Shown: positions 7,691 through 61,961, counted from the first letter of the stretch. The stretch: 64,000 nt of DNA from Candidatus Poribacteria bacterium (GCA_965222225.1 CBDCTK010000002.1:4576001-4640000), one strand, 5' to 3'. The notes: a model not told the origin generated them from the letters alone. Numbers and translations: made by a program.

Positions 7691-7728
7691 GGGAATCTCT
7701 ATCGCCCTCGCTGTCCGCTCGCTTGATC
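7691..7728 (-). repeat. 38-nt hypervariable insertion unit, copy A (inside a GTAG REP)
   Basis: Minus strand GATCAA GC GA GC G GAC A GC GA GG GCGATAG AGATT CCC, between GTAGGCGGA and TTGCCCCGCC. Confidence 0.9.
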
Positions 7729-7800
7729 TCCGCCTACGGAGAAAGAGAATGATAGGATTAAAGCATCACATTCACTGTTATTCAAGCGAACTGGTAAAAG

Positions 7801-7958
7801 TAACCCAAGTTGCCACTTACAAGATTTTAGGCGTGTAGACACTGTTCTTAATTGAGAATTATTCATTATTCACGGATATTTCGTAGCGCAAACTGTCAGT
7901 TCGCGCACTCACAGGCACAATCTAACAGATCGTGCTACAAAGGTGACAACTTAGGTTA
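7801..7958. mobile_element. MITE-like element with TAACCCAAGTTGC-type terminal inverted repeats carrying an internal REP doublet
   Basis: Left TAACCCAAGTTGCCAC, right GTGACAACTTAGGTTA; similar ends at 51231..51337. Confidence 0.6.
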
Positions 7959-8308
7959 AGTAAGAATGCCGAATATAGAGCCGATTCCTTTGACGCTTTT
8001 CAATTGCAAACCTATACAAATATGTGGCAATATATAGGTATTGCCAATAGGTGGAAAATTTAACTATGGATAAACGCAAGCGATTTACGCTCAAGCAACT
8101 CGACACAGGGGCATCACCGCAAATTACGGGGAACTATCGGAGACTTCATGGACGCTCGGTCGTCCAATGGACGTCATAATTCGTTAATTGAGGATGATTT
8201 GCCACGCTTCGAAGACCGACACCGTCAAGCCATCGAGTTTCTCCACAGACATTTCGTGTTCAAGGCTGGCTATATTCACTTTTGACACGAATCTCCATCT
8301 GAGGTCTT

Positions 8309-9181
8309 ATGACATATCAGGAAATCAAAGAATCTTACGAGCAGAACGGTTACGTTGCCGTTGAAAACATCATTGATGAATCCGAACTGGATCCCATGCG
8401 GAATTTCATCAAGGCTAGGGTAGACGAATATGCCAGTGAACAGTACGCGGATGGCAAACTTTCGTCGCTTTATGAGGAGGAATCCTTCACCCGCCGTTAT
8501 GCCGCTATCAGTGAAGAGCAGGGACTTGTGCCTCGCGGATGGTCCTTGGGCTCCTTTGGCCGCGAATTCTTCAATCTTTACAACCTGCCGGGGATCCTTC
8601 ACGTGGTTGGCCTTCTCCTTGGACCTGAGGTCTCGAATATTGGGGGACCAGCGCTACGGACAAAACTACCCGGCAGCGTAATTACATCGTTTCCATGGCA
8701 CCAAGACAGTCAGTATGTCGACCAGTCCACAATCGGGAAGAAGGAGAGGCGCACGGAACATCTGCATATGGTCACCGTATGGGTGCCGCTTGTGGAGGCG
8801 ACGGTCGAAAACGGCTGCTGCTGGGTCATTCCGGGGAGTCACCGCTGGGGCTTGCTTGACGGTGCGCGCGGCGAGGACTCAAACGTCCAAATGGAGGAGG
8901 ATGTGGAGGCGCGTGGCATCCCCGTTCCGGTTCCGCTCAAAACAGGAGGCGCCATATTTTTCTCGAACCTGTGCGTGCATTGCAGCAAACTGAATTCCAC
9001 GAAGGACTCTCGATGGAGCATCGACTTTCGATATTTTCCCACGCCGGATCGAGCAGACCTGAACCCGGAACAATGGAAAGCGGCTGACTTCGTGAAAAAC
9101 AAGACGCGGCCGCTCGTTGTGCTTTCCAAGGGGCCTAAAACCAGCTTTGAGGAATGGGAAGCAGTGCATCGCAGAAAGTAA
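8309..9181 (+). CDS. Phytanoyl-CoA dioxygenase (PhyH) family Fe(II)/2-oxoglutarate dioxygenase
   Basis: PWHQD, WVPLVEATVENGC, PGSH, distal H and R motifs. Confidence 0.9.
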   Translation: MTYQEIKESYEQNGYVAVENIIDESELDPMRNFIKARVDEYASEQYADGKLSSLYEEESFTRRYAAISEEQGLVPRGWSLGSFGREFFNLYNLPGILHVVGLLLGPEVSNIGGPALRTKLPGSVITSFPWHQDSQYVDQSTIGKKERRTEHLHMVTVWVPLVEATVENGCCWVIPGSHRWGLLDGARGEDSNVQMEEDVEARGIPVPVPLKTGGAIFFSNLCVHCSKLNSTKDSRWSIDFRYFPTPDRADLNPEQWKAADFVKNKTRPLVVLSKGPKTSFEEWEAVHRRK

Positions 9182-9336
9182 CCTCAGTATGAGAGTTGTG
9201 TGCCTGCTCGTGCTGATGGTATGTGAGAATTTCACCAAATAGAAACAACGACAGATGAATTTGAGTTCCACGGCAGGCACTCCACGCCCGAAGCTAATCA
9301 CACCTACTCTTGACACGAGCCACCATCTCAAATATT

Positions 9337-10209
9337 ATGACAGATCAAGATGTCAAAGAATCGTACGAACAGAACGGATTCGTTGTCGTTGAAAATATTA
9401 TTGATGAATCCGATCTAGATCCCATGCGAGGTTTCATCAAGGCTAGGGTAGACGCATATGCCCATGAACAATACGCCGAGGGTAAACTTTCGTCTCTCTA
9501 TGAACACGAGCCCTTCACGCGTCGCTATGCAGCTATTTGCGAGGACCAAAGAATTGAGCCGCGCGGTTGGGGGCATGGCATTTTCGGTCGAGAATTCTAC
9601 GATCTCTATTCCCTCCCCAGCGTCATTCGCGTCATCAATCTCTTCTTGGGCTCTGAAGTCTCGAGCGACGGGCGCCCGGGCCTGAGGACAAAACTCCCCG
9701 ACAGCGAGATAACGTCGTTTCCGTGGCACCAGGACAGTCAATACTACGACCAGCCGACAATCGGGAAAAAAGAGCGGCATACTGAACCTCTGCACGTGGT
9801 CAGCGTGTGGCTGCCGCTCGTGGAGGCAACGGTCGAAAACGGCTGCCTTTGGTTCATTCCGGGGAGTCACCGCTGGGGCTTGCTTGACGGCGCGCGCCGC
9901 GAGGACTCAAACGTCCGGATGGAGGAGGATGTGGAGGTACGGGGCACACCCGTTCCGGTTTCCCTCAAAACAGGAGGCGCCATATTTTTCTCGAATCTGT
10001 GCGTACATTGCAGTAAACTGAACACCACGAAGGACGTTCGATGGAGCATCGACTTCCGCTATTTTCCCACGCCGCATCGCGCAGACCTGAACCCTGAACA
10101 ACGAAAGGCGACTGACTACATGAAAAACAGGACGTGGCCACTCGTCGTGCTTTCCAAGGGACCTAAAACCAGCTTTGAAGCATGGGAAGCGGAGTACCAC
10201 AGGAAGTAA
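9337..10209 (+). CDS. PhyH family dioxygenase, tandem duplicate of 8309..9181
   Basis: Same motifs; ATG at 9337 gives the same length as the paralog. Confidence 0.9.
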   Translation: MTDQDVKESYEQNGFVVVENIIDESDLDPMRGFIKARVDAYAHEQYAEGKLSSLYEHEPFTRRYAAICEDQRIEPRGWGHGIFGREFYDLYSLPSVIRVINLFLGSEVSSDGRPGLRTKLPDSEITSFPWHQDSQYYDQPTIGKKERHTEPLHVVSVWLPLVEATVENGCLWFIPGSHRWGLLDGARREDSNVRMEEDVEVRGTPVPVSLKTGGAIFFSNLCVHCSKLNTTKDVRWSIDFRYFPTPHRADLNPEQRKATDYMKNRTWPLVVLSKGPKTSFEAWEAEYHRK

Positions 10210-10324
10210 CCGCATTCCGACGGTGATGCATCCACGACTGTTAAGCGTTCGCGTAGGCTTGGACAAGGGAAGCTACAACCAAGAAACGTGGCGGTGGGTG
10301 CAGTTGTAATCTTGAGGTGTCGTT

Positions 10325-11161
10325 ATGGATGATTGTGAACGTTATCTTTTTGACCTAAGCGGTTTTCTGCATATCCCCGGTCTGCTATCGGCGACCGAAG
10401 CGCAACGGCTCTATGAAGCGGCGGTAGAGCTTGAGGAACATGCGCTTGCCTGCCAACACGATTCTCCCAAATGGCGCGCGGTTTGGGGACCCGAGTATTG
10501 GCAGAATCAACAATATGCCTATTTTGCGCAAATGGGCGGTCCCGCCGCCGCCAAGACGCTGATGATTGAGGATTTCTGGCTGTATCCCGAAGCGTTCGAC
10601 ATGCTAATTGGTCACGATCGCACCATGTCGTATGTGCGGCGCATCATCCAGAACGCTATCAGCATCAACAACTCTGAATTGAGGATAAGGTACACCAACA
10701 ACGCAAGTGGAATGCACATGGGTCATCCACATGGACGGGGGCAGAAATACCGTTACGAGGTCATTGATGGCGAGATTCAATCTACAATGGTTCGGATGAT
10801 TTATTTCCTACACGACGTTTCCATGGACGAAGGCCCCACCTGCTTCGTTCCCGGATCGCATCGTAACGAATTTCCCGTACCGGTTAACACTGCGTCCGTG
10901 GAGGATGAGCCGGGGGTTGTCGGGATACCTGTCAAAGCGGGTGACGGTATACTGTTTACGGAGGCCTGCCGGCACGGCGGGTTTGCCAACCGCACTGAAA
11001 AGACACGCTACACGTTGCACGTCGGCTACGGTCCGCACTTCCTGAAATCGCAGAACATTTCGACCATGGATGAGCCGGTGCATGTCACGGATGAACTGCT
11101 CGGTCGATTGTCCGATACCCAGCGGCAACTGCTTGTGCCCACCGAACGAATTGCTCTTTAA
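10325..11161 (+). CDS. PhyH family dioxygenase
   Basis: YLFDLSGF N-terminus, GMHMG, PGSH, EACRHG. Confidence 0.85.
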   Translation: MDDCERYLFDLSGFLHIPGLLSATEAQRLYEAAVELEEHALACQHDSPKWRAVWGPEYWQNQQYAYFAQMGGPAAAKTLMIEDFWLYPEAFDMLIGHDRTMSYVRRIIQNAISINNSELRIRYTNNASGMHMGHPHGRGQKYRYEVIDGEIQSTMVRMIYFLHDVSMDEGPTCFVPGSHRNEFPVPVNTASVEDEPGVVGIPVKAGDGILFTEACRHGGFANRTEKTRYTLHVGYGPHFLKSQNISTMDEPVHVTDELLGRLSDTQRQLLVPTERIAL

Positions 11162-11270
11162 CTGTCCAACTCAGACGCGCGAACGTGACCTGTCCCAAAT
11201 TACATTGACATGAGTTACTCCGGTATCCCTTGGACAAGTTACGAGACGGCGGAGCGTGCCTACTAGTCTA

Positions 11271-11306
11271 AGCTATCTATCGCACTCGCTAATCGCTCGT
11301 TTAATC
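11271..11306 (-). repeat. Hypervariable insertion unit, copy B
   Basis: Minus strand GATTAA AC GA GC G ATT A GC GA GT GCGATAG ATAG CT, directly after GTAGGA. Confidence 0.8.
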
Positions 11307-11501
11307 TCCTACAGTAGGTTTGTTGTAACAATCTTCAACAATCAAGTCGCTAATTTCCCTCCTTAATATGTGTAAATGTGAATGGAAATGACTACAGCAG
11401 CCGATAACAGTTCCGTACGCGCTGCGGCGTATTCTTGGGTTCGGAAGCAAATACACGTTCACAGATACCAACTTCAGTAGAGTTTTCCTCATGGAGGCCT
11501 T

Positions 11502-12244: not shown

Positions 12245-12313
12245 TCGTCTTGCCCTTCGACAATGTTACGACAGGCTCAAGGGACGCAAAACAATGAAAC
12301 GCTAGATACAACG

Positions 12314-12348
12314 AATCAAAGACTGGATAGCTAGTGCGAAGGTGTTCT
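12314..12348 (+). repeat. Degenerate hypervariable insertion unit, copy C
   Basis: AATCAA A GA CT G GAT A GC TA GT GCGA-AG GTGTT CT. Confidence 0.5.
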
Positions 12349-12351
12349 AAA

Positions 12352-13152: not shown

Positions 13153-13289
13153 GGAAGTGGTTCGCAACACCTAACACGTCCACTTAATATTACCTCGCAT
13201 TCGCCCTTTTATCTAATGGCAACCCGCTGCGCGGTGTCGCACGTAGCGAGAATGTGATGCGAAAGGCATTAATACGATTCTCGTGATCG

Positions 13290-14097: not shown

Positions 14098-14301
14098 AAG
14101 TAATGGTACACACCTCACATAACAATCTTCTAAGGTAGATACTCCTCGTTTTAACATCCAATGAAATAAGACGATTTCGCAGCGGGTTTTTATCAAAAAT
14201 TTTCGGTATTCCGGTGGGATGGATTTTGTATTTCTATCGTTTCACTCCACACTCAATTTCGTCGAAGATCGCCTCCTTTGCATTAACGTTTCACACTAGA
14301 T

Positions 14302-30724: not shown

Positions 30725-30800
30725 GGGATCTCTATCCGGATCTGTTCAGTCGTTTGATTGCAGGGGAATTCTATCGCCCTCCTTAATCAGTCGGTTGATC
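30725..30800 (-). repeat. Two hypervariable insertion units (copies D and E) inside one GTAG REP
   Basis: Minus strand GTAGGGTGC [GATCAA CC GA CT G ATT A AG GA GG GCGATAG AATTC CCC] TGC [AATCAA AC GA CT G AAC A GA TCCG GATAG AGAT CCC] ACC. Confidence 0.9.
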
Positions 30801-30825
30801 GCACCCTACAAAATAACAATCAGTT

Positions 30826-42857: not shown

Positions 42858-43719
42858 CCTCGGTGAACTCCGCTATCCCGCGCAGCACGCGGCGCACCCG
42901 TGCGGCGGCGACGAACAGCACCAATCCTGCACAGTTTGGACGTTCGCCAAGTTTGAGTTAGATTACCTGTACGACTTGCTCATTAATCTCAAATCGGGGT
43001 ATGCCGCCAGAGAAAGATCATCCATTACATGGGGTGCCCCCGAATGGCCTCTTCCAACCGAGCTGGAGGTCAGCGATTGCTTGCATAAAACGTTCGTTCA
43101 AGACTGCGCACTTCACCAAGCCACAAAACGACTCTCCCATCCCTATCGACGCAAATACTCCTCTGCCTATGTAATCGCCGTACGCAATGCGGTGTACAAT
43201 TCGATTGAGCAAATGAGTGACGAGGGGATGTCCCCGGACCCGATGGCTCCCCTTCATGTGGCTCCCCTTCATGGCCTTGTTTCCGCTGTCGAAGCCCACG
43301 CTGCCCACAGCTTGTCAAAAACGCCGGAACAGTACAATCGAGACACGCAAATCGCTGTTGAAATCGAGAAGGAACTAAACCATAAGAAACACCTGGATTT
43401 GAAGCCCGAAACCCGGAGAATTAGCAATCTGATCAAAGAAACCCCGCTTGCTCACGACGACTGGGATCAGTTTCTATGGAGCGACTTCTTGGACAGCGTC
43501 TTCACCCATTCGGCGCGCTTTACCATCGAAGTTTCACCCGCGGACCTCGGCCCAAACATGCCCTCCCTGCGTCAGAAAGCTGGCGCTCCCGTTAAACCTG
43601 ACGCCCAAATTCTGCGAAGAATGCAGCGGCAAACCGCCCGAACGACATGTCACCAAATCGGACGCGCATATTTCTCTGACGCATTCATTGATGAATTTCT
43701 TCGAAACATCAAGACTTAA
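42835..43719 (+). CDS. Hypothetical protein
   Basis: 294 aa ORF with AAGGA RBS overlapping the upstream gene end. Confidence 0.65.
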   Translation: MAKPKRVNLGELRYPAQHAAHPCGGDEQHQSCTVWTFAKFELDYLYDLLINLKSGYAARERSSITWGAPEWPLPTELEVSDCLHKTFVQDCALHQATKRLSHPYRRKYSSAYVIAVRNAVYNSIEQMSDEGMSPDPMAPLHVAPLHGLVSAVEAHAAHSLSKTPEQYNRDTQIAVEIEKELNHKKHLDLKPETRRISNLIKETPLAHDDWDQFLWSDFLDSVFTHSARFTIEVSPADLGPNMPSLRQKAGAPVKPDAQILRRMQRQTARTTCHQIGRAYFSDAFIDEFLRNIKT

Positions 43720-43721
43720 AC

Positions 43722-43745
43722 GACCAAGCGAATGAACAATGAGTG
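43722..43745 (+). repeat. Truncated hypervariable unit (copy F) abutting REP GTAGGGTGGGCACCGCCCACC
   Basis: GACCAA GC GA AT G AAC A AT GA GT G. Confidence 0.7.
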
Positions 43746-43789
43746 TAGGGTGGGCACCGCCCACCATTCCTTATTCTATTTAGGAGGGG

Positions 43790-44016
43790 AATCAAGCGAC
43801 TGGATAAGGAGCGAACAGCGACCGCGATAGAAATCCTATAGCAAATCCCGTGCGATAGAGATTCCACGCGCGAGAATTCCCATAGAAGATTCTCATAGAG
43901 CTCCCATACATACCGTGTAATCCGTTTAATCCGATCAAGCGACTGGATAGGGAGCGCGATAGAGAATCCCTCAAGCGAGTGAACAGCCAGCGCGATAGAG
44001 ATCCCACAGAGAATCC
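43790..44016 (+). repeat. Reiterated hypervariable unit arrays (copies G and H)
   Basis: Four GCGATAG, three (A/GA)TCAAGCGA starts and multiple ATAG-N4/6-CCC tails, each different. Confidence 0.9.
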
Positions 44017-44258
44017 TGATTCAGACAAGCAGGTTCCTAGCAATTATCACGCTCGTTCAATTGTGGCACTTTTTTCAGTTTCGTTCTCCCTGTGCCAATC
44101 GGCAAATCTGATTTTACTTGTATCAATCTATAGTATTGTGATAACTTAATTCGGGAGGAAAATCGAACTTCGTTCAATTCTAAAGATGCTTGCAGGTCTT
44201 CGTTTGTGCAGCTTGGAACCCGCGATTCTAGGGACGCGAAAAGAACGAAATCAAGTTT

Positions 44259-44699
44259 ATGAAAGTCAAAATCAAGCGAGTAGATAAAGACCTCCCGTTG
44301 CCCAGATATGAAACTCCAGGGTCGGTGGGGTTTGATTTCCTTTGCCGCGAATCCGTGGCAATCAAGCCGCACAGTTTAGGACTCATCCCAGCCAACGTCA
44401 TCGTCGAAACGCCGCCGCGATATATGTTGATGGTCACGCTTCGCAGCAGCACGCCAAGGAAACGGGGTTTGCTGATTCCGCACGGGGTCGGAGTCATCGA
44501 TCAGGACTACTGCGGCGAGGGCGACGAGATAAGAATTCAGGTCTACAATTTTAGCTCCAATCCAGTGACGGTAGAACGAGGGGATAGGATTGCCCAGGGC
44601 GTTTTCGTCAGGGTGGATACGGCGCAGTGGTCGGAGGTCAATCGAATCGAGTCGGAGACACGCGGCGGATTTGGGAGTACCGATACCGTAGGGAATTGA
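44259..44699 (+). CDS. dut: dUTP diphosphatase
   Basis: GSVGFD, RSS, GVIDQDYCG, RIAQ, RGGFGST. Confidence 0.95.
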   Translation: MKVKIKRVDKDLPLPRYETPGSVGFDFLCRESVAIKPHSLGLIPANVIVETPPRYMLMVTLRSSTPRKRGLLIPHGVGVIDQDYCGEGDEIRIQVYNFSSNPVTVERGDRIAQGVFVRVDTAQWSEVNRIESETRGGFGSTDTVGN

Positions 44700-44701
44700 A
44701 G

Positions 44702-45523
44702 ATGGAACAGTATTTGGACGCGCTTAGACAGGTTGTAGAGACCGGGGTTGATCGGAGCGGCCGCAACGGCGATACCCGCGCCGTATTCGGGATGCAGATG
44801 CGTTTCGACATGTCCGACGGCTTTCCCGCCGTTACAACGAAGCAGCTTGCGTTTAACACCGGTGTGAAAGCCGAACTCTTGGGCTTTCTGAGAGGCTACT
44901 CGGATGTCAAGGACTTTCAGAAGCTGGGATGTAATGTCTGGAATCAGAACGCTGAAGCCGATTATTGGAAATCGCGTGCGCGCTTTGAGGGCGACTTGGG
45001 GCGAATTTACGGCGTACAATGGCGCTCATGGAAAACCGTAGACGGACGGACACTGGATCAGCTTGCCGAGGTGATTGATCAGATCAGGAACGATCCGTCC
45101 AGCCGCCGCCATGTGGTGACAGCCTGGAATCCCGGCGAGCTCGGCCAAATGGCGCTCGCCCCATGCCATGCGTTCTTCCAGTTTTTCGTAGCCGATGGCA
45201 AACTTTCGCTTCACATGTACGAACGGAGTTGCGACATGTTCTTGGGTGTCCCGTTTAATATCGCATCGTATGCCCTGCTCCTGCACATGGTGGCGCAGGT
45301 GACGGAACTAATGCCCGCTGAGTTCATTCACTCCCTGGGAGACGCCCATATCTACCATGAACACTTTGAGCATGTGGAAATACAGTTGGAAAGAGAACCT
45401 CTGCGGCTGCCGGAACTTTATCTAAACCCCAAGATAAAATCGATTGATGATTTCAAGATGCAGGACATCAAATTGCAAGATTACAAACACCACGACGCAA
45501 TCAAAGCGCCTATGGCAGTATGA
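44702..45523 (+). CDS. thyA: Thymidylate synthase
   Basis: DLGRIYGVQWR, AWNP, ALAPCH, RSCDMFLGVPFN, GDAHIY, PMAV. Confidence 0.97.
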   Translation: MEQYLDALRQVVETGVDRSGRNGDTRAVFGMQMRFDMSDGFPAVTTKQLAFNTGVKAELLGFLRGYSDVKDFQKLGCNVWNQNAEADYWKSRARFEGDLGRIYGVQWRSWKTVDGRTLDQLAEVIDQIRNDPSSRRHVVTAWNPGELGQMALAPCHAFFQFFVADGKLSLHMYERSCDMFLGVPFNIASYALLLHMVAQVTELMPAEFIHSLGDAHIYHEHFEHVEIQLEREPLRLPELYLNPKIKSIDDFKMQDIKLQDYKHHDAIKAPMAV

Positions 45524-46607: not shown

Positions 46608-46933
46608 TACATAGATTCATTGTTCACAATCTGTAGGATTTTAACATAGTAGCGAGCAATTGCCAAACCACGGAAATAGATATACAATTCCTCCAGATTT
46701 TGGTAGAATTGTCGGGAAGGTGGGGAGATTGGGGGATAGATTTTATCTCAAGGTGGGATGTTTACCCTCGCGCAAGATTTTGGCACTGGAAACTCGCGCG
46801 TACTTGAATAGTCTTGAATAGTATAGTTGTATATCGCAGCCTCGAATCATATTAAGTTGGAGCGATTGGGAACTTTGAAGTGACCTCATTTTTCTTGGCG
46901 CCAAATCGGTTGCTGGTAAGGAGATACTCTCTT

Positions 46934-49900
46934 ATGTATAAATGCCATTTCATTTCCAAATTGATTGGAACTCGGCATTATATTGTTCTTATCGGCCTAT
47001 TGACCCTCATCGTGGGTTCTCAAAACGTGTCCGCCCAATCGCAGTTGGCCCAAGATACCTATGCCATTTTTGAGGGAAGCTGCCTCATCTGCCACGGCCC
47101 CGACGGCGCCTATCGAGAAACGCTCCTCATGGAACACGACGCGCTCATCGGAGGGGGGACCGTCGTTCCGGGAAATCCGAATGCCTCCGAGTTGTATAAA
47201 CGGCTGCTTGGCCCCACCGAAAGCGGCGCACAGATGCCGTTCGGACAACCACCCCTGCCCCCTCAGTCGATTGACACGATTCGACGCTGGATAGTAGCCG
47301 GCGCACCCGATTGGGCGACAATTCCCACGACCAATAGCCGGTTTATCTCGCCCGGTGAAATACTCAAGAGCATTGAGACGCACCTCAACACACTTTCAGC
47401 GTTTGACCGCGCGTTTGCCCGCTACTTCACACTTACCCATCTGTATAACGCAGGGGAAACTCCGGAGTTACTTGGTGAGTACCGCAAAGCACTCTATAAA
47501 CTGGTCAACAGCCTCTCATGGGGACTTGATGTCATCAACCCAATCCCCATCGACACGCAAGCTACCATCTTTTACATAGACCTCCGACACTACGAATGGG
47601 ATGTCAATGACGCCTGGACGAAGATAGAAGAAGAGTATCCCTTTCACATTTCGTTTGACGCACCCGCACAGCTTGGACTGCGGAATCAACTTGGACGGTT
47701 GCAGACTCAGATGAAGACCGATGTGCCGTCGGTTCATATCGATTGGTTTCTTGCAACCGCCTCGACTCCACCGCTTTATCACGACCTGCTTTCGCTGCCG
47801 TTGACGGATAGGGAGCTGGAGACCCGATTGGAGGTTGATGTCGCCCGAAACCTTATCAACGCGCCCGGGGTTCGCGTCTCGCGGGCGGGATTCAACAATT
47901 CGGGCGTCTCCAATAACAACCGGGTAGTGGAACGGCATACCTCTCGCTATGGAGCGTACTGGAAAAGCTACGACTTTGCCGGGAGTGTCGGGGCACAGAA
48001 CATCTTTACCCACCCGCTCAATTTCACGCACGATGGCGGTGAGGCTATCTTCAATCTTCCAAACGGATTGCAGGGATATTACCTTGTCAACGCATCCGGT
48101 TTCCGTCTAGACGAGGCGCCGATAAACATCGTTTCCAACCCCGCTGCCAGCGACCCGACGGTGCGCAACGGAATTTCGTGTATCGGTTGCCATACCGAAG
48201 GCATGAAGACGTTTGAGGACCGGGTGCGTTCGGCGATTGAAAGCACCACCAACCCGCCCTACGACAAAGCGCAGGCGCTTCGACTCTACGTTGAAAAGTC
48301 AGACATGGACGCTCGTGTGGGTGATGACATGGAGCGCTATCGGGGTGCGCTTGAAGAGACGGGCGGTGCGTTGGGCGGTGTTGAACCGATTTCCCGTTTC
48401 CATGAGGCGTTTCATGGACCGGTGGACGCGGCATACGCCGCCGCCGTGGTTGGGTTGGAGACTGAATCCTTCCTCGCAAAGGTTCGTGAGAACGCGGGCC
48501 TGCAGAGCGCAGGTTTGCTCGTATTGGACGGCGGGCAGATTAAACGTGACACCTGGACATCTAGTTTTCGTGACGTGATTTCCGCACTGGATTACCCGCA
48601 GTTAGTCGGAGAGACACCGGTCATAACACAGCCCGATGTGATACCGGGTGGGCAGGTTCAAATCCCGGATCCAAACCTGCGTGCCGCTATTGCGGAAGAA
48701 CTCGGCAAAAGCGTCAATGCCCCGATAACCGCGGAAGACATGGAAGGATTGACTTTCTTGAGCAAAATAGAGGGGCAAGGTATCCGCGATTTAACCGGTC
48801 TTCAGTTTGCGACAAATCTGTCTAGCATAAGGATTGATGGGTCTAAGGTGTCTGATCTCTCTCCGATAGCAGGACTAACCCAGTTAAAAAGGATAGATAT
48901 TGACTTCACCGATCCGCCTTCCATTATTCATGACGCGAAACAGCTTTCCAGATTGGTTAATCTGACTTTTTTAGCTCTTCATGGAGTAGAGGACCTTACA
49001 CCCCTTGCTGGGCTACCCAAGTTAGAGCAACTCTTTGTGAGTCACCCTAACATACGCGATCTATCGCCGCTTGCCGGATTAATCAACTTGGAACTTATTC
49101 ACTTGGAACTTATTCACATGAGCGGCGCCCTTATATCCGATTTATCCCCGCTTGCGGGATTAACAAAACTAGAGCATGTACATCTTCCCGGCGGAGACAT
49201 ATCGGATCTTACCCCTTTGGCGGGATTAACCGAGTTAGAAGAGTTGCATCTGCACCACAACTCAATATCGGATATATCCCCCATCGCGGGGTTAACCAAC
49301 TTGAAGCGGCTAGATCTGTCCCGCATTGATGTCCTATCCGATATATCGCCCCTTGCCACGTTATCGAACTTGGAGTGGTTGAGCCTACGCAACAACAACA
49401 TTTCGGACATTTTCGCACTTGCCCGCTTAACCAATTTAACCTACATGGATCTCGCCAGAAACGAAATCTCGGACGTATCGCCCCTTGCCACGTTATCAAA
49501 CTTAAAGCGGTTGGAGCTCCTCGACAACAACATTTCGGACATTTCCGCACTTGCCCGCTTAACCAATTTAACCTGGCTGAATGTCTCGCAAAACGAAATC
49601 TCCGACCTGTCTCCGCTAGACGGGTTGCGCCCCAACTTGGATTTTCTTAGCGTGTCCGACAATCCGTATTTCCCACCGGGCGGGCCAAAAATTGATGGGC
49701 CTTGGTTATGGCTCCTCTTACCAGGGGCAAAATTGCCTAGCGGTAAGGATTTATTATCAGAAGCGAGTGGAGGCGCCGTGACCGAGTTAACAGTTGCCAC
49801 CCATGGGGCAACGGCGGGCCAAGCGGTCAGGGATAGCATCTGGACCTTAGACACACTCCCGCATCAAAAAAAATATAACATTTCCCATATGCTGAAAGAC

Positions 49901-51199
49901 TCAATCCGTAACGGCACCATCTACGGATCTCTGTCCCTTTATTCACCACGAGAACAGGAAACAATGATATATGTTGGCAGCCAGAATTCGGTAAAAACCT
50001 GGCTGAACGGAGTTTTGGTTCACCAGGTTATCGATTGGCGCGATCCTGATAATTACACGGATGCTGTCCCTGTCACGCTGAAGCCCGGACGGAATGTGTT
50101 GTTAGTCGCGGTTGCTATCCTTGCTGACAACGGTCATGGCTTTTTTGGATTTTCACCCGGCACCGAATACGCAGTGGCCACTGGTATCGGCTATGCTTTT
50201 TCGCACGCGCCAATCCACATCGATGATACCTTTACCTTCGATGTGCGTGCGGAGAACGTGTCTGACCTGGCGGGGTGGCAGTTTGATATTGCGTTCGACC
50301 CTGCCATCCTTGAAGCGGTTGACGTGAGTGAAGGAAATTTCCTGAAAACTGACGGCGGAGCGACCTTCTTTCAGCGTGGGCACATTGACAACGCGGCGGG
50401 CAAAATCACAGGACTCAGTGCGGCACGGATTACGGATCGCGAGGTCAGTGGCACCGGTACCATCCTCCAAGTGAGGTTCAAGGCAAAAATCGGAGGAGAA
50501 ACGGAATTGGCGCTGGGGAACTTCGAGTTCGGCTCTAGCACCGGGGAAAACATCCCTGCAGGCCCCCTTGAAATACGCATCACCGTGGAGGAACGACTTG
50601 CCACCGGGGACGTGAATCGAGACGGACGGGTGAGTATTTTGGATTTGATTCTCGTCGCACAGCAGTTGGGGAGAAGCGTACCCCCCAACTCACCGGTGGA
50701 TATTAACGGAGATGGGGTTGTCAACATCTTCGACCTTAGCCTCGTGGCGCAGGGAATAGGCGGAGCTGCTGCGCCAGCAGCTCGGGGCATAGACTCGGCT
50801 GCGATAGAGGCGTGGATTGCGCTGGCGCGGCTCCAAGATGACGGCTCAATCGCCTTCCGACAAGCCATAGCCAACCTCGAGGTGTTGTTAGCCTCAATGA
50901 TCCCGTCAGAGACGGCACTCCTGCCCAATTATCCGAATCCGTTCAATCCTGAAACGTGGATACCGTACCAGTTGGCTGTCCCCGCGGAGGTGACGCTGAC
51001 AATCTATGACATGAACGGAGGAACGGTTCGGCGTTTGGAGGTAGCGCATCAAGCGGCGGGCACCTATCAGAATCGGAGCCGCGCGGCGTATTGGGATGGT
51101 CGGAATCAACGTGGAGAGTCCGTTGCCAGCGGTTTGTATTTCTACACGCTGAAAGCAGGCGAGTTCACGGCGACGCGCAAGATGCTTATAAGGAAGTAG
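46934..51199 (+). CDS. Large secreted multidomain protein: cytochrome c (2 CxxCH), internalin-like LRRs, cohesin, dockerin-like, FlgD-Ig C-terminus
   Basis: CLICH and CIGCH; IPDPNLRAAI cap followed by ISDLSPLAGLTNL repeats; LAGWQFDIAFDP; GDVNRDGRVSILDL; NYPNPFNPETWIPY...ASGLYFY. Confidence 0.9.
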   Translation: MYKCHFISKLIGTRHYIVLIGLLTLIVGSQNVSAQSQLAQDTYAIFEGSCLICHGPDGAYRETLLMEHDALIGGGTVVPGNPNASELYKRLLGPTESGAQMPFGQPPLPPQSIDTIRRWIVAGAPDWATIPTTNSRFISPGEILKSIETHLNTLSAFDRAFARYFTLTHLYNAGETPELLGEYRKALYKLVNSLSWGLDVINPIPIDTQATIFYIDLRHYEWDVNDAWTKIEEEYPFHISFDAPAQLGLRNQLGRLQTQMKTDVPSVHIDWFLATASTPPLYHDLLSLPLTDRELETRLEVDVARNLINAPGVRVSRAGFNNSGVSNNNRVVERHTSRYGAYWKSYDFAGSVGAQNIFTHPLNFTHDGGEAIFNLPNGLQGYYLVNASGFRLDEAPINIVSNPAASDPTVRNGISCIGCHTEGMKTFEDRVRSAIESTTNPPYDKAQALRLYVEKSDMDARVGDDMERYRGALEETGGALGGVEPISRFHEAFHGPVDAAYAAAVVGLETESFLAKVRENAGLQSAGLLVLDGGQIKRDTWTSSFRDVISALDYPQLVGETPVITQPDVIPGGQVQIPDPNLRAAIAEELGKSVNAPITAEDMEGLTFLSKIEGQGIRDLTGLQFATNLSSIRIDGSKVSDLSPIAGLTQLKRIDIDFTDPPSIIHDAKQLSRLVNLTFLALHGVEDLTPLAGLPKLEQLFVSHPNIRDLSPLAGLINLELIHLELIHMSGALISDLSPLAGLTKLEHVHLPGGDISDLTPLAGLTELEELHLHHNSISDISPIAGLTNLKRLDLSRIDVLSDISPLATLSNLEWLSLRNNNISDIFALARLTNLTYMDLARNEISDVSPLATLSNLKRLELLDNNISDISALARLTNLTWLNVSQNEISDLSPLDGLRPNLDFLSVSDNPYFPPGGPKIDGPWLWLLLPGAKLPSGKDLLSEASGGAVTELTVATHGATAGQAVRDSIWTLDTLPHQKKYNISHMLKDSIRNGTIYGSLSLYSPREQETMIYVGSQNSVKTWLNGVLVHQVIDWRDPDNYTDAVPVTLKPGRNVLLVAVAILADNGHGFFGFSPGTEYAVATGIGYAFSHAPIHIDDTFTFDVRAENVSDLAGWQFDIAFDPAILEAVDVSEGNFLKTDGGATFFQRGHIDNAAGKITGLSAARITDREVSGTGTILQVRFKAKIGGETELALGNFEFGSSTGENIPAGPLEIRITVEERLATGDVNRDGRVSILDLILVAQQLGRSVPPNSPVDINGDGVVNIFDLSLVAQGIGGAAAPAARGIDSAAIEAWIALARLQDDGSIAFRQAIANLEVLLASMIPSETALLPNYPNPFNPETWIPYQLAVPAEVTLTIYDMNGGTVRRLEVAHQAAGTYQNRSRAAYWDGRNQRGESVASGLYFYTLKAGEFTATRKMLIRK

Positions 51200-54448: not shown

Positions 54449-54529
54449 TGATGCCAGCGAGACATCCCCCAATTACTCTACCCCGCGCTTCCAAGTGAGA
54501 GAAAGAAATCAGACGCATAGACAGAAAAC

Positions 54530-55471: not shown

Positions 55472-55549
55472 AGGGAGCTGACAAGCTTGTTATCGGTTAT
55501 TTCCATTCGGAGCGAACCGTGTGCAAGCCATGTACAGAGAATCGAACTT

Positions 55550-56572: not shown

Positions 56573-56745
56573 CTCCCACGATTGTCTGAGTAATCCCACA
56601 GTTTAGCTTTATATTCTCATTAAGCAAGCTTCAATAATAAATCTTACATTTTGACAAACACAATGGCGTCTAGGAGGGCTGACCGCTCCTGCTGGATTGA
56701 CAAATCCAGCAGGGTCTAATCTAACCACTTTGCTTCCGTTCTTTC

Positions 56746-56857
56746 GCTCCAGAGGAGCGGTATGTCAATAGAAAACCGATGACTCCAATCTTCTGCTCCA
56801 GAGGATCGAACGAGTGGATAACGAGTGCGATAGAGCTCTTGCAGCATGTTTGTAAAA
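56746..56857 (+). repeat. Paired GCTCCAGAGGAGC repeat; second copy interrupted by hypervariable unit I (56804..56840)
   Basis: GCTCCAGAGGA|GCGGTATGT versus GCTCCAGAGGA[TCGAACGAGTGGATAACGAGTGCGATAGAGCTCTT]GCAGCATGT. Confidence 0.9.
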
Positions 56858-56957
56858 TCGATATAGCCTGCATTTTCCCTAGTCAATGCGGAAGCTAAAC
56901 TTTTCTATTGAATCTTGCTTAAAGGAATACCCCTTACCCGCCAAGATACAGATAACC

Positions 56958-58079: not shown

Positions 58080-58174
58080 AGATTCCTCTCAATCTTGCTT
58101 ATACTGTATAATTCACTTTATCAAAAGTAAGTTGGTTTTTCGATTCACTATCAATCTCGGAACAGGAGAATCTA

Positions 58175-58747
58175 ATGCGCAGGAAAGAGATGTTGTATGC
58201 GGTGATAGGCGGTATCGTCGGAACAGTTCTAACAATGGCGGCGGGGGCATTGGCTCCGCTGGTAGCGCAAGACGAACCGGTAGACCTGAACGCGAGGAAG
58301 ATTACCTGCAGGGAGTTGGACGTGGTTGATGCGAAAGGAAATCTCCATGCGGGGTTGAACTTCTCCGAATTCGGAGGGAGTGTGTTCGTGGTGGGAAAAG
58401 CAGGCAAAGGGGCGGAGATGCACCTCACCGAATTCGGAGGGGCGGTGTTCGTGTGGGGCAAAGAGGCCAAAGGGGGGGCGGCGATGCACCTTGACGAATT
58501 CGGAGGGAAGGTGTACGTGGAGGGCAGAGGGTTCAAAGAGGCGGCGATGAGCATCGACGAACACGGCGGGAGGGTGTCCGTGGAGGGCAAAGAGGGCAAC
58601 GAGCTCAAAAGGGCGGCGATGAGCATCAATGGAGATGGAGGGGCGGTGGACGTGTGGGGCAAAGGGGCGGGGGCGAGGATGAGCGTCAATAAGTCCGGAA
58701 ACGGCGGTTTTTCCTCTTGGGACAAGAACGGCCATCGTTTGGAGTGA
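58175..58747 (+). CDS. Exported protein with ~20-aa internal repeats
   Basis: N-terminal hydrophobic segment; repeats (E/D)(F/H/D)GGxVxVxGK; AGGAG RBS. Confidence 0.75.
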   Translation: MRRKEMLYAVIGGIVGTVLTMAAGALAPLVAQDEPVDLNARKITCRELDVVDAKGNLHAGLNFSEFGGSVFVVGKAGKGAEMHLTEFGGAVFVWGKEAKGGAAMHLDEFGGKVYVEGRGFKEAAMSIDEHGGRVSVEGKEGNELKRAAMSINGDGGAVDVWGKGAGARMSVNKSGNGGFSSWDKNGHRLE

Positions 58748-59190
58748 GGCGGATTACATCATGAATGAATTGGCAATCAGGCAGGACAACGCACTGGCTA
58801 TCAGCCGCGACGCAGCGGAATTGATTAAAACCGGCGTGTCGGAGAACACCCTGATAGCGTAGAGCGTATTGTTGGGGCTGAACGCATGGCTGGACACCGA
58901 TCTGAATGATGCCGTGCTTGCCAATACATCACGCAACTCCACCAGTCGGGCAAAGCACCCGGCACAATCGCCCAAGTCGTGGCGGCAGTCAAGTGGCAAG
59001 CCAAGGACATGAATTGACTGGATGTGGTCGGCACAATCACACAGCGAACACTGGCGGGGTTTAGGGATTCTGCTATGATCAATCTGGTGAGCGATCGCCT
59101 GTTGCGTATTTCGGAGGTCGTCGCGGTCAATGTCGGCGATGTCAGAGGGAGCGTGCTCCATGTGACATCGAGTAACACCAATCAGGAGGT

Positions 59191-59260
59191 ATCAAGGGAG
59201 CGAACAGCAACCGATCAAGCGAACGAACAGTGATTGCGATAGAGTTCCCATAGAGATCCC
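59191..59260 (+). repeat. Hypervariable unit J (abortive start, full unit, extra tail)
   Basis: ATCAA GG GA GC G AAC A GC AA CC / GATCAA GC GA AC G AAC A GT GA TT GCGATAG AGTT CCC / ATAG AGAT CCC. Confidence 0.9.
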
Positions 59261-59340
59261 GAGGCGAGGCGTTGTATATCTGCGAAGCTACCTGACAATT
59301 GATTAAGCGGTGGCCCCGCAAGGCGGGCATAGAACGGGGC

Positions 59341-59432
59341 GATCAAGTGACCGAATAGGATCAACCGACCGGATAGGGAGGGCGATAGCTTATCCCCTGC
59401 GATAGCTTATCCCCTGCGATAGCTTATCCCCT
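59341..59432 (+). repeat. Hypervariable unit K with 3 x 17-bp tandem tail
   Basis: GATCAA GT GA CC G AAT A G / GATCAA CC GA CC G GAT A GG GA GG then (GCGATAGCTTATCCCCT)x3. Confidence 0.9.
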
Positions 59433-59736
59433 GTTCCGAAGAGTGCATACCAGCAACACCTGGGCAAAGGGCGACTATTGAACGTCGGGGCGTGGGCGGC
59501 GATGGGTGAATGAATTCGGCAACGGTGCAACGAGCACTTAGGAGAAGAATGGGAATCGGTTGAAATGACAGGGGATTAACCGACCAATAAAAGCAGTGGC
59601 GAGTAAAGGAGTTAATAACTCTTCACGGAAGTCAAAATCTCTTGGGATTGGTGAATGCCCAAGAGTCGACTTCAGCAGCTTTGACTATTTGGCTCCGCTA
59701 TTACAGTATTCTTCACGATTGTTATGGAGATTAAAT

Positions 59737-60528
59737 ATGGCTTTCAAATTCGGTTATAGCACGTTACGTTGGCAGACGCCAGATCTTGAACCGCTTCTCG
59801 TTCAACTGAAGGAGGCGGGTTGGGACGGATGGGAGATGCGTCAATCACTAGACTGGGTGGGAACACCGGGACGTGTCAGAAGGATCTGCGAAAACGTCGG
59901 TCTCCCTGTTGTTGTGGTGACCGCGCAGGGTTTGCCAATCGACAAGGATTGGACACAGATGGAACTCAACAAACGCCGAATTGATTTCGCCGCAGAGGTG
60001 GGTGCCGATTGTTTCATGTTCATCGGTGCGGCCAAGCCGAGAGATGGTAACGCCAGTTACGATCATATTGCCGCGTTGGCGGATGTATCGGAGGAGTGGG
60101 CGGAATACGCCGCGCAATACGAACTGGAAGTGTGCTACCACATCCATACCAACACGACAGTTGATTCAATTGAAGACTGGGCGAAATATATGAGTCTGCT
60201 GAGAAAGTGCAAGTTGTGTATTGATGTCTCGCATTCCGCGCTCTGGGGCTATAACCCAGTAGAGTCGATACGCCGCTACAAGGAGCAGTTGATTTACGTC
60301 CATCTTCAGGATTATGTGAACTTCTCGGGTGGAAATGGAAGAGATTATCAGGTGAATTGGGTGGACATCGGTGGCGGCTCGTCGCTTGACTTCCCGCAGA
60401 TAATGGAAACATTGAAAAGCATCGGTTATAACTGCTGGATCACGGCGTGTCCCGGGGAGGTAGAAAACCGAACCGATGAGGAGCGGATGCAAGTGAATCG
60501 AAATTACCTGAGACAGCTAGGCTACTAG
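59737..60528 (+). CDS. Sugar phosphate isomerase/epimerase (AP endonuclease 2 TIM barrel)
   Basis: AGWDGWE, CYHIH, CIDVSH, YVHLQD; GGAG RBS. Confidence 0.85.
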   Translation: MAFKFGYSTLRWQTPDLEPLLVQLKEAGWDGWEMRQSLDWVGTPGRVRRICENVGLPVVVVTAQGLPIDKDWTQMELNKRRIDFAAEVGADCFMFIGAAKPRDGNASYDHIAALADVSEEWAEYAAQYELEVCYHIHTNTTVDSIEDWAKYMSLLRKCKLCIDVSHSALWGYNPVESIRRYKEQLIYVHLQDYVNFSGGNGRDYQVNWVDIGGGSSLDFPQIMETLKSIGYNCWITACPGEVENRTDEERMQVNRNYLRQLGY

Positions 60529-60621
60529 CGACGATTCAAGGCAGTGTTCGTCTCAACGAATAATCTCAATCTTGGCTAGCGGGATAAATTATTGATAGAT
60601 TCGTTATCTTTCGTGCCCCCA

Positions 60622-60686
60622 GTAGGAGCGATTTCCGAATCGCGACTGCGATTCCTGACAGGTCGCGATTCGGAAATCGCTCCTAC
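60622..60686. repeat. REP doublet, perfect 25-bp inverted repeat
   Basis: GTAGGAGCGATTTCCGAATCGCGAC ... GTCGCGATTCGGAAATCGCTCCTAC between convergent genes. Confidence 0.9.
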
Positions 60687-60777
60687 AATTGTAAGAGAAC
60701 ACCATGAATCTATCCATAAGTTAACACTCTCCAATTTTTTACTACATTGTTACTTGCCGTATTGAACAGCCACCTTC

Positions 60778-61620
60778 TCACCCACGAGCGGGTTCGGACA
60801 TCGTTTTCTTCAATTCTCTGGTTAATTCGGCAAGATGCGTGTCGTTCTCCATGACCTGCTGTAGGTGCACCATTCGCTCAGGGCCCGCCGTTCTTACCAT
60901 GGTTTCGCCGTGTATACGGTCAATCCAGAATCTGGCTTCGCCTCCAAGCCGGTTTCGCAGTTCGCCGAGTCGTTCTTCAGGGTAGCGGCAGCAGAAGTTC
61001 ATCGTATACATCCGGCGCCGTCCGGAACCGCCGAAGGCGGCATGCTTAAGGCTGTGGTTGAAAACCACAATGTCGCCGGGTGTTGTCTCTAGCGCAACGG
61101 CGGGCACCTCCCACCCGCTCAATCCCCAGATCGTTCCACTATCGCGGATGTCTCGCTCAATGGTATCGGCGTACTCATTGCCAACACGGTGACTGCCCGG
61201 AATGACGCGCAAGGCGCCCGTGTCACGCGTGAGAGGGTCAAGGTAGAAAGCTATCTTGATGCTCATTAGTCGATTCCCCTCGTAGCCGTCCGAGTGCCAG
61301 TTGCTGTCGCCGGCGTAAAAGTTGCCGTCACCGCTCGTATAGTTAAAGTCCTCGCCGCAGATGCTGGCGGCGATGTCATGGATTCGTGGATCGTCCAAGA
61401 AGGAGCTTAGGTATTCGCTCAGATCGGGAAACGGAAAGATACACGACCGCATTACTCCGTCATGGGGCTTGCCAGCGTGCCCGCCCTTGTGTGCTTTCCA
61501 GATAGCTTCAAATTCCTCGATTATTTTGTCGACGCAGTCAGACAGCAGACCGGGAAAATTCAGATACCCGAATGTGTCAAAAGCCGCTAATTGCTGGCGG
61601 TTGAGTTGTGTTGAATTCAT
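60778..61620 (-). CDS. PhyH family dioxygenase
   Basis: NWHSD, LRVIPGSH, PGDIVVFNHSLKHA. Confidence 0.9.
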   Translation of the reverse strand: MNSTQLNRQQLAAFDTFGYLNFPGLLSDCVDKIIEEFEAIWKAHKGGHAGKPHDGVMRSCIFPFPDLSEYLSSFLDDPRIHDIAASICGEDFNYTSGDGNFYAGDSNWHSDGYEGNRLMSIKIAFYLDPLTRDTGALRVIPGSHRVGNEYADTIERDIRDSGTIWGLSGWEVPAVALETTPGDIVVFNHSLKHAAFGGSGRRRMYTMNFCCRYPEERLGELRNRLGGEARFWIDRIHGETMVRTAGPERMVHLQQVMENDTHLAELTRELKKTMSEPARG

Positions 61621-61665
61621 GGGTATTCCTCACAATTTTGGGACAGTGCAAGAGCGGGTTCTATC

Positions 61666-61730
61666 GATCAAGTGAGCGGATAGCGAATGCGATAGAGTTC
61701 CCGTAGAGATCTCAGTGCGATAGGAATCTT
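61666..61730 (+). repeat. Hypervariable unit L with two extra diversified tails
   Basis: GATCAA GT GA GC G GAT A GC GA AT GCGATAG AGTT CCC / GTAG AGAT CTC / A GT GCGATAG GAAT CTT. Confidence 0.9.
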
Positions 61731-61737
61731 TGCTACG

Positions 61738-61791
61738 GTAGGAGCGATCTCCAGGTCGCGACTTCTTATTGCGAGCGGAACTCGCTCCTAC
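61738..61791. repeat. REP doublet related to 60622..60686
   Basis: GTAGGAGCGATCTCCAGGTCGCGAC ... CTCGCTCCTAC. Confidence 0.8.
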
Positions 61792-61961
61792 AGAAGACGC
61801 GCAATAAATTGCGCTACTACAAACCTAACAGCGTAAGTCCCGAATGTATAATTCTTAGTTGCAATGACTATAGCGAACGGGAACGCGATAGTGAATTCTT
61901 CTCCTTACTCAGTCGCTTAATCCTGCAATCAGACATGGATTCCACAATGTTATTCTTGCCG

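Follow-up and report, generated by a model that had tools for sequence, protein, structure and literature searches.

Small dispersed repeats (SDR) of the Nostocaceae, which Elhai and colleagues reportedly described in 2008 as SDR1–8, are 21–27 nt long, keep their structure by compensatory change and are nested in other repeats and minitransposons; to our knowledge, how such sub-40-nt repeats move has been open since 2008. Here, we describe a dispersed unit of similarly small size that appears to resemble these repeats closely and to have them as its nearest counterpart in behaviour, and which was encountered in a 64,000-nt stretch of DNA (hereafter the window; C2:4576001–4640000) of a metagenome-assembled genome (MAG) from a Candidatus Poribacteria bacterium (G000; 5.70-Mb assembly, two contigs). 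SDR5 is stated to insert precisely at GCG^ATCGC of HIP1, at a point that separates the third base of GCGATCGC from the fourth, and no SDR-like repeats were reportedly found outside the Nostocaceae (PMC5861425, PMC4390886).

The reading that we favour, with a probability of roughly 0.6, is that the motif represents a family of non-autonomous mobile repeats of 34–39 nt (mostly 36–37 nt) that are recognised as a single strand. Its behaviour is that of a mobile DNA element ranking among the smallest described.

An earlier inspection of the window made from its letters alone (the sequence-only reading) had drawn attention to a recurring motif with fixed spacing, all copies of which differed from one another. 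Both observations were reproduced in the window. Scanning with the skeleton GATCAA-NN-GA-NN-G-NNN-A-NN-GA-NN-GCGATAG at up to two mismatches returned eight matches, located at 7699–7728(−), 11277–11306(−), 30771–30800(−) and, on the plus strand, from 43933, 56804, 59213, 59359 and 61666, while none was found in 100 dinucleotide shuffles used as control; no two of the copies in the window are alike. A covariance model trained on 148 copies of the unit recovered the same eight and two additional ones, at 43788–43840 and 43973–44008 (10 matches, all with E ≤ 3e-4). In the whole genome, the spacing ATCAA-N17-GCGATAG occurs 812 times, compared to 0–42 times for each of the other spacings between 10 and 29, and these 812 copies comprise 381 distinct interiors, the commonest of which is present 47 times. 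Counted over the 18 fixed positions of the skeleton, 704, 241, 108 and 74 copies carry 0, 1, 2 and 3 mismatches, respectively, versus 0, 0, 0 and 3 for the reversed skeleton, and the total amounts to ∼1,100 copies or ∼0.7% of the genome. The motif thus occurs far above chance. The partial copies that had also been suggested fared unevenly: those at 12314 and 61870–61900 resemble decayed units on inspection by eye only, and the one at 43722 corresponds to an insignificant match (43728–43745, 15 bits, E = 0.59). Among Rfam covariance models, only tRNA passed the gathering threshold anywhere in the window, and nothing reached E ≤ 1 within 43600–44100. Literature searches on Poribacteria repetitive extragenic palindromic (REP) sequences, miniature inverted-repeat transposable elements (MITEs) or dispersed repeats returned unrelated papers only, and no description of the unit was found in the library searched, supplements being outside the scope of that search.

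The positions that had been regarded as hypervariable slots are four covarying base pairs arranged around tandem G•A pairs. Using 148 distinct copies (8 from the window and 140 from other species), we determined that 94.9% of the cells are paired, compared to 63.1% ± 1.4 after shuffling (0/500 shuffles as high), and that both sides have changed in 253 cells versus 41.5 in the shuffles; controls in which the partners were slid against each other were paired in 23.5–60% of the cells. Similar results were obtained in G000, where the 812 copies were anchored by the two flanks only: Watson–Crick pairs are present at positions 1–17, 2–16, 5–13 and 6–12 in 584, 753, 761 and 683 copies (247, 305, 286 and 396 expected if the columns were independent), and positions 3–15, 4–14 and 7–11 are occupied by G•A, A•G and G•A in 755, 784 and 783 copies. 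Moreover, wobble is strongly asymmetric, with 343 G•T or T•G cells versus 41 A•C or C•A cells in the same copies, which indicates that pairing is selected on one strand as written (single-stranded DNA or RNA) and not in the duplex.

Read from its 5′ end, the unit has a single-stranded head (ATCAA), then the hairpin, which is 17 nt long, and finally, at the 3′ end, a tail (GCGATAG-N4-5-TCCC). The hairpin is composed of two base pairs, tandem G•A/A•G, two further base pairs and a G•A-closed loop of 3 nt that reads mostly AAT or GAT in G000. This structure contradicts the view of the sequence-only reading that no hairpin is present. Energy-based folding of four window copies on both strands yielded no significant hairpin (z 0.2 to 1.8), and this failure of nearest-neighbour folding is probably the reason why none had been noticed. 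No closing helix was detected between the upstream flank and the tail, where Watson–Crick counts equalled expectation and no covariation was seen. Each stem pair has 3–4 alternatives, and 84 of the 192 combinations of common alleles are encountered versus ∼131 under free assortment, which points to many co-existing lineages, neither derived from a single master copy nor freely shuffled.

Insertion of the unit was analyzed within G000 by using the 13 nt to the left of each copy to retrieve empty paralogues. At 235 sites with an empty paralogue, the net insert length peaks at 34–36 nt (112 sites), with minor peaks at 23 nt (18 sites, corresponding to the hairpin module alone) and 17–19 nt (19 sites). 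After deduplication, 108 independent full-unit events (34–39 nt) in 66 distinct target contexts remained, and the insert measures 36 nt in 46 and 37 nt in 31 of these events. The base immediately 5′ of the insert is G without exception (108/108). Over the 66 contexts, C or G is found at −2 in 57, A at −4 in 46 and C at +1 in 39, so that A-N-(C/G)-G^C is the consensus target. The number of target nucleotides replaced ranges from 0 to 6 (0–3 in 103/108 events). No target-site duplication (TSD) was present in the 108 filled/empty comparisons and no terminal inverted repeat (TIR) was seen, as the sequence-only reading had held.

The targets themselves are largely hairpins. GTAGG-headed REP hairpins received 29 of the events, in the last stem pair or the loop, and units lie on the GTAGG-head strand of such REPs 145 times but in reverse orientation 17 times in G000. 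Earlier copies of the unit are hosts as well, in the loop after G7 (13 events), in the 3′ stem (6 events) or, on the reverse complement, at CTATCG^C (10 events); the remaining hosts are assorted other hairpins. Units also enter GCG^ATAG of earlier copies, and about a quarter of all units are preceded by GCG (200/812). Such insertion of units into earlier units accounts for arrays in which multiple heads are followed by multiple tails. In addition, one MITE family comprises copies with zero, one or two units that differ in their stems and in their internal positions.

A further host is the array of a type I CRISPR-Cas (clustered regularly interspaced short palindromic repeats) locus at G000:C2:2692788–2707790 (L153), which encodes a WYL regulator and proteins with Pfam matches to Cas6, Cas3, Cas7/DevR, Cas5, Cas1 and Cas4. 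This array has a 37-nt repeat and a period of 72–76 nt, and of its 12 repeat 5′ halves, 8 continue normally and 4 run into a unit, the junction lying one or two bases into the 3′ stem arm of the repeat. The interrupting units are often present in both forward and reverse orientation with degenerate repeat remnants between them. As the CRISPR repeat is unrelated to REPs and MITEs, these insertions suggest that hairpin-forming DNA as such attracts the units.

Several repeat families of G000 were recorded alongside these hosts. The genome contains 367 GTAGG-headed perfect hairpins. Three REP families pair with Y1/RAYT (REP-associated tyrosine transposase) genes, namely GCCCC-N3-GGGGCGACAGGTG, CGCTCC-AGA-GGAGCG-ATATGT and GTAGGAGCGATCTCC-N3-TCGCGA, and a fourth family reads GTAGGGTG(C/G)GCA-NN-GC(G/C)CACC. 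MITE families carry units as passengers in G000 and at loci L105, L029, L063, L062 and L082; the TIRs of the first begin with GTAACTGTTTAGT and are accompanied by 8-bp TSDs, those of the second begin with GAGCCTGTTTGAAAAGTA, and the third begins with GGTTCTGTTGACATTT. MITEs explain many of the filled/empty differences between species.

Within the window, the copies of the unit and one uninterrupted host repeat are arranged as follows (scores from the covariance model).

7689–7730, minus strand: full unit (hairpin module and GCGATAG-AGATTCCC tail; 54.5 bits), flanked by both arms of a GTAGG-headed REP hairpin (GTAGGCGGA ... CTTGCCCCGCC).
11267–11308, minus strand: full unit with one skeleton mismatch (GATTAA), immediately 3′ of a GTAGGA head (44.2 bits).
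12314–12345, plus strand: probable decayed copy (AATCAAAGACTGGATAGCTAGTGCGAAGG), seen by eye and insignificant by covariance model.
30725–30802, minus strand: pair of units (55.7 bits), intact at 30761–30802 and degenerate at 30725–30760, within a TGTAGGGTGC...ACCAGCC-type REP.
43744–43770, plus strand: uninterrupted GTAGG-headed REP hairpin (GTAGGGTGGGCACCGCCCACC), representing a repeat family, counted genome-wide, into which units have inserted elsewhere.
43788–43909, plus strand: unit with an additional 11-nt half hairpin module (43788–43840; 35.8 bits, E 5e-5), followed by several tail-like ATAG-N-TCC units up to 43909 (by eye).
43931–44016, plus strand: full unit (43931–43972), then a 5′-truncated unit (43973–44008); 56.1 and 32 bits; TRF period 36 × 2.0.
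56802–56843, plus strand: full unit, GATCGA variant (47.9 bits), inserted in a REP of the GCTCCAGAGG type, within its 3′ arm.
59191–59260, plus strand: hairpin-only module (59191–59212), full unit (59211–59252) and an extra tail unit (49.7 bits).
59341–59433, plus strand: truncated hairpin module, then a full unit (59357–59398; 52.5 bits) whose tail is tandemly triplicated (17 nt × 3.1, 100% identical, 59382–59433).
61664–61730, plus strand: full unit with tail-like units (57 bits), marking the left edge of a ∼308-nt block (61670–61976).
61868–61900, plus strand: partial copy (ATAGCGAACGGGAACGCGATAGTGAATTC), by eye only.

In the arrays at 43790–43909, 59191–59260 and 59341–59432, 5′ hairpin modules (GATCAA-N17) are mixed with GCGATAG-N4-5-TCCC tails, some of the modules being truncated. 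The window contains other repeats besides. Two of them, at 61735–61873 (∼140 nt) and 56621–56921 (∼300 nt), are dispersed and have many copies of 80–90% identity in every genome of the genus. Tandem repeats of 63–72 nt (75–77% identical) occupy 58366–58668 within an open reading frame (ORF) at 58175–58747, and a 1439-aa ORF at 46880–51199 contains a 132-nt × 2 tandem repeat and, by eye, suggests leucine-rich repeats; eukaryote-like repeat proteins are typical of sponge symbionts, and this ORF is an example.

Comparison with related species provided filled and empty sites at orthologous positions. The interval 61670–61976, which starts inside the unit at 61664, is replaced by 3–50 nt in 8/8 congeners fetched. 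The unit at 56802 has an orthologous copy only in the closest species (G005). Neither the unit at 59211 nor that at 59357 is matched by a counterpart in G005 or in G004, the corresponding interval of which measures 85 nt. Among orthologous intervals with a unit in a relative, 49/70 carry none in G000, the intervals being not all independent of each other. Many of these interspecies differences consist of whole MITEs (TIRs and 8-bp TSDs included) that contain units, so presence or absence between species is by itself no proof that the unit moves. Proof at the level of single units is provided by two other comparisons. A clean indel of 36 nt was observed within an orthologous copy (L038 versus G000). 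In addition, a 2418-aa ORF of G000 (C2:2917913–2925169, L167) has gained, mid-way near 2921272, a net 72 nt of unit material in frame, whereas its G005 orthologue, 99% identical over the flanking 329 and 291 nt, lacks the gain; counting G005, the 72 nt are absent from 4/4 congeners giving a match, and genome G012 of another genus (g4) gave none. A second in-gene site (L166) matched a large paralogous family and offered no clean orthologue.

These comparisons bear on the proposal of the sequence-only reading that the motif is an insertion footprint, to be doubted if orthologous sites had no empty alleles or if copies were conserved in position upstream of co-regulated genes. Empty alleles exist at orthologous as well as paralogous sites and positions are mostly unconserved between species, so the proposal stands and neither ground for doubt applies. 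Assembled Logan contigs, which served as read evidence, contain in 4/4 runs a joint that skips 43773–43837; as the shorter side of this joint is only 27 nt, it was not counted as an empty allele.

The distribution of the unit is narrow. In a scan covering one genome per prokaryote species, all 80 loci among the matches listed belong to Candidatus Poribacteria bacterium, and viral contigs gave 0 matches to the motif. A survey of 176 genomes of the phylum with the exact pattern identified 459–1094 copies in 10/10 genomes of the window's genus (g1) and 142–166 copies, with a different preferred tail, in 4/4 genomes of g4, a genus of another family. The other 162 genomes comprise 155 with 0 and 7 with 1–17 copies; in 5 of these 7 that were inspected, all copies but one are confined to a few small contigs, which looks like mis-binning. 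Pairing of the stems in G000 falls with decay of the skeleton (96.7, 93.2, 87.3 and 70.9% for 0–3 mismatches). The predominance of intact copies and the joint decay of pairing and skeleton, as neutral decay predicts, imply that copies are young or short-lived, and the comparison of genomes shows that they turn over fast between species.

As regards gene context, which was obtained with a crude codon-bias gene caller (79% coding), 764 of the 812 copies are intergenic, 26 lie across a gene edge and 22 within ORFs. The view that the motif has no coding role is therefore right for most copies and not for a few, which lie in frame inside ORFs that read through them as peptides of the type GSS-x-RI-x-SAI-xx-P. 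This intergenic preference (94%), together with the strong conservation of the structure and the unpaired nucleotides, could be explained by a host-selected cis element, such as an mRNA stabiliser, a terminator-like signal or a nucleoid/topoisomerase site, that is retained by selection and not selfish; such roles have been proposed for REPs, which the unit resembles (PMC3733652). However, positions are mostly unshared among congeners, the units show no orientation preference relative to co-directional flanking genes (288 same, 250 opposite), they interrupt CRISPR repeats, other repeats and ORFs, and the searches of further genera, both in the order and in the phylum, returned no copies or only a few. 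We consider a host-selected element improbable.

The units are oriented with respect to the DNA strand rather than to transcription. Evaluated by cluster in 100-kb windows of GC skew balanced for gene strand, 58 clusters are on the plus and 123 on the minus strand where skew is positive, compared to 227 and 116 where it is negative (Fisher p 8e-14). The skew curve of the MAG is irregular, a point against the mobile-repeat reading, and the bias is consequently taken to show no more than an association with the DNA strand, without mapping replichores. The copies form 576 clusters, 417 of them single-copy, and 40 of the 159 multi-copy clusters are of mixed orientation with no dominant +/− spacing. 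This strand dependence also weighs on a scenario in which the unit spreads as an RNA hairpin, new copies arising by reverse transcription and insertion. Such a route would fit the tolerance of G•U-type wobble on one strand only, and RNA-library contigs do cover some units, spanning 43933–45006 (X17) and 60997–61767 (X15, bridging the unit at 61664–61705). These contigs are, however, uninformative on transcription, strand and ends, and orientation follows GC skew. The sequence-only reading had proposed looking for co-occurrence of the motif with reverse transcriptase or primase-polymerase genes, and none was found: PF00078 is distributed without regard to the motif (g1 7/10, mostly below the curated cut-off; g4 2/4; g6 4/7; g3 3/10), and PF09250 has no match in g1 or g4. 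Spread through RNA is thus, in our judgement, distinctly improbable. In G000, the PF00078 match falls within a restriction-modification island. The protein concerned, of 670 aa and matching RVT_1 weakly (C2:4499561–4501572), is encoded beside type I restriction-modification genes (an HsdR-like protein of 1015 aa and specificity-subunit fragments) and is probably a defence-associated reverse transcriptase.

The arrays raise the question of whether the units are independently mobile at all or instead arise as by-products when older repeats undergo slippage, template switching or gene conversion, MITEs and REPs being the only vehicles of their spread. Arrays of partial modules, the perfect 17-nt × 3.1 tandem and the 23-nt gains of a hairpin alone are in keeping with such an origin, as are CGA/GCGAT microhomologies at module borders, the start of the ORF insertion from a pre-existing GGATCAAG and the 47 identical copies that ride one MITE family. 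On the other hand, the 66 contexts are distinct and mostly unrelated, 52/66 of them without a match to the first base of the unit, insertions occur in CRISPR repeats, the site in the window is empty in 8/8 species with no prior copy, and insert length has a sharp mode at 36–37 nt. We therefore hold an origin as mere by-products to be decidedly improbable, with the qualification that repair or template switching may contribute, given the imprecise junctions and, at one site, microhomology.

Off-target integration of spacer-sized DNA at hairpin or cruciform DNA by the resident Cas1 is very improbable indeed: the length of the unit (34–39 nt) is near that of a spacer in the resident array (period 72–76, 37-nt repeat), a Cas1–Cas4 adaptation module is present in G000 and Cas1–Cas2 can integrate near cruciforms in vitro, yet no target duplication of repeat length was seen and strand-specific selection of a hairpin plays no part in the Cas1 mechanism.

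A mobile repeat calls for an enzyme acting in trans, and candidates were sought among the genes of G000 and its relatives. G000 has five PF01797 (Y1_Tnp) matches, all of the RAYT type, including one intact 157-aa gene flanked by its own inverted REP. The RAYT genes are flanked by GCCCC-N3-GGGGCGACAGGTG and CGCTCC-AGA-GGAGCG hairpins and not by the unit, and no IS200-type TnpA beside a long version of the unit was found in G000. Self-BLAST of multicopy G000 genes likewise returned ordinary insertion sequence (IS) families, and a longer form of the unit was not among the results. The IS load of the genome is high, with a 285-aa zinc-ribbon transposase present 46 times, a 340-aa one 24 times and smaller families 10 and 6 times.

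A two-gene unit encoding a 330-aa protein without Pfam match and a 303-aa tyrosine recombinase (G000:C2:3334489–3336533, L154), which has 4–6 diverged copies in G000, is skewed towards motif-rich genera (g1 9/10, g4 3/4, others 3/27). Two motif-rich genomes lack this pair, one motif-free genome has it, and units adjoin it only in some of the G000 paralogues and at 0/9 loci fetched from other genomes; the pair is a weak lead only. Among the genes seen, a Y1 HUH transposase of the RAYT type is our best guess, and a tentative one that we would still call unlikely. A similarly doubtful but far-reaching proposal is that a new insertion machinery, unrelated to RAYT, reverse transcriptase or Prim-Pol (primase-polymerase), places structured cassettes of 36 nt on the 3′ side of a G in hairpins that are extruded transiently. 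If so, no smaller self-defining mobile unit would be known, selection for pairing would by itself maintain the ∼84 stem 'haplotypes' that co-exist, and the unit would be a hyperparasite of REPs and CRISPR repeats that could disable CRISPR arrays.

The model suggested by the reading of the unit as a mobile repeat is one in which a trans-acting enzyme would recognise it as a folded single strand, in single-stranded DNA at replication or, less likely, in RNA, and would copy or move it. The conserved unpaired and G•A nucleotides would form the protein-recognition surface, and the stems would need only to pair. Insertion itself, as the filled/empty comparisons show, takes place 3′ of a G with replacement of 0–6 target nucleotides and with neither TIR nor TSD. 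Its targets are REP hairpins (in fixed orientation to the GTAG head), pre-existing units (in their loop and 3′ stem), MITEs and CRISPR repeats, as well as, in a few cases, ORFs.

Several further observations weigh against this model. No mobilising enzyme was identified among the candidates searched (Y1/RAYT, TnpB, reverse transcriptase, Prim-Pol and tyrosine recombinase). As a specific partner, Y1/RAYT was rejected, PF01797 being present in 34/41 relatives including genera without the motif, and the GTAGGAGCGATCTCC-N3-TCGCGA REP, which occurs in 32/41 genomes, was rejected as a discriminator; at RAYT loci, the unit is encountered solely where it interrupts the cognate REP (3 loci versus 4 uninterrupted), and a TnpB (PF07282) profile search of G000 gave no match. 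The folding strand is mostly located on the strand of negative GC skew, and IS608-type targeting of the lagging-strand template would predict the opposite sign. The statistic for proximity to a loop is weak (29/108 sites versus 18% at shifted control positions), and the junctions are imprecise, 0–6 target nucleotides being replaced, which repair or template switching fits at least as well as HUH transfer. Many units are MITE passengers, as exemplified by the commonest interior, and copy number therefore overstates the number of independent events. The 72-nt ORF insertion is composite and begins at sequence already in place, and neither an excision product nor ongoing movement was seen. Finally, the hairpin is unpredicted by energy models, and covariation is the sole basis of the structure.

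If the unit is mobile, it would represent a second, independent SDR-like system in an unrelated uncultivated phylum, with about a thousand copies per genome and 14 motif-rich genomes (10 + 4, two genera) in the sample. How such repeats move becomes testable here, since the strands are clearly asymmetric, insertion follows a defined rule (3′ of G within DNA that forms hairpins) and some events are very recent, and units that interrupt CRISPR repeats or enter ORFs in frame bear on genome evolution in sponge symbionts. More generally, a conserved skeleton with variable slots can conceal a hairpin that energy folding overlooks.

How the unit relates to described systems can be judged from its traits. 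Among hairpin elements, it shares with REP/RAYT systems a short, intergenic hairpin repeated in hundreds of copies and presumably recognised as a folded single strand, its imperfect palindrome (17 nt, 4 covarying and 3 G•A pairs) being far weaker than typical REP stems. It differs in having a head, ATCAA preceded by G, that is not GTAG or CGTC, GTAGG belonging to the host REPs, and a stem of 4 Watson–Crick and 3 G•A pairs; it is not the cognate repeat of any RAYT found, and whereas REPs and RAYTs occur throughout the order, it is abundant in two genera only. Unlike REPINs or BIMEs, it does not form inverted doublets at regular spacing, as the 40/159 mixed clusters indicate. With MITEs, it has in common a non-autonomous, dispersed and intergenic nature and, presumably, mobilisation in trans, but it lacks TIRs and TSDs, is 5–10 times shorter and inserts independently within homologous MITE copies.

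The attC sites of integrons, at which crossover takes place 3′ of G, are 57–141 nt long, carry R as well as L boxes and occur together with gene cassettes. They resemble the unit in a conserved structure with variable sequence, in the position 3′ of G and in the recognition of a folded single strand that is presumed for the unit, and by description differ in their greater length, boxes and cassettes. CRISPR arrays differ in that the units are dispersed (576 clusters), and the sole true array of G000 uses a different 37-nt repeat.

Further likenesses are found with IS200/IS605 elements and their PATE derivatives, against the background of single-stranded DNA transposition (PMC6006769), namely the absence of TIRs and TSDs, a hairpin near the end, insertion 3′ of a short target and an orientation linked to the replication strand. 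Of the transposases of the family, searches of G000 returned the five Y1_Tnp matches, of RAYT type, and no match to TnpB (PF07282). The unit differs in having one hairpin and not two, a target consisting of a single invariant G with weak preferences at −4, −2 and +1, and imprecise junctions, and its strand bias has the sign contrary to that expected from the IS608 rule.

Compared to SDRs, the unit is likewise very small, dispersed and devoid of TIR, TSD or gene, and in both, compensatory change preserves the structure and copies lie nested within other repeats. It is a dispersed unit of <40 nt, nested, with insertion demonstrated by filled/empty comparison. Insertion at a fixed point is also paralleled, at GCG^ATCGC of HIP1 for SDR5 and at GCG^ATAG of earlier copies for the unit. 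The differences are that the unit is found in a different phylum, measures 34–39 nt, has a G•A-rich hairpin core and targets REP, CRISPR and self hairpins instead of HIP1, which is not enriched in G000 (120 GCGATCGC in 5.7 Mb); the likeness drawn here is one of behaviour. The conclusion of the sequence-only reading that the motif fits no described category was accordingly too strong, given a strand-specific hairpin element that resembles SDRs. Taken together, these comparisons suggest that the unit is best viewed as an SDR-like, REP-invading micro-element whose phylum and architecture would be new relative to SDRs.

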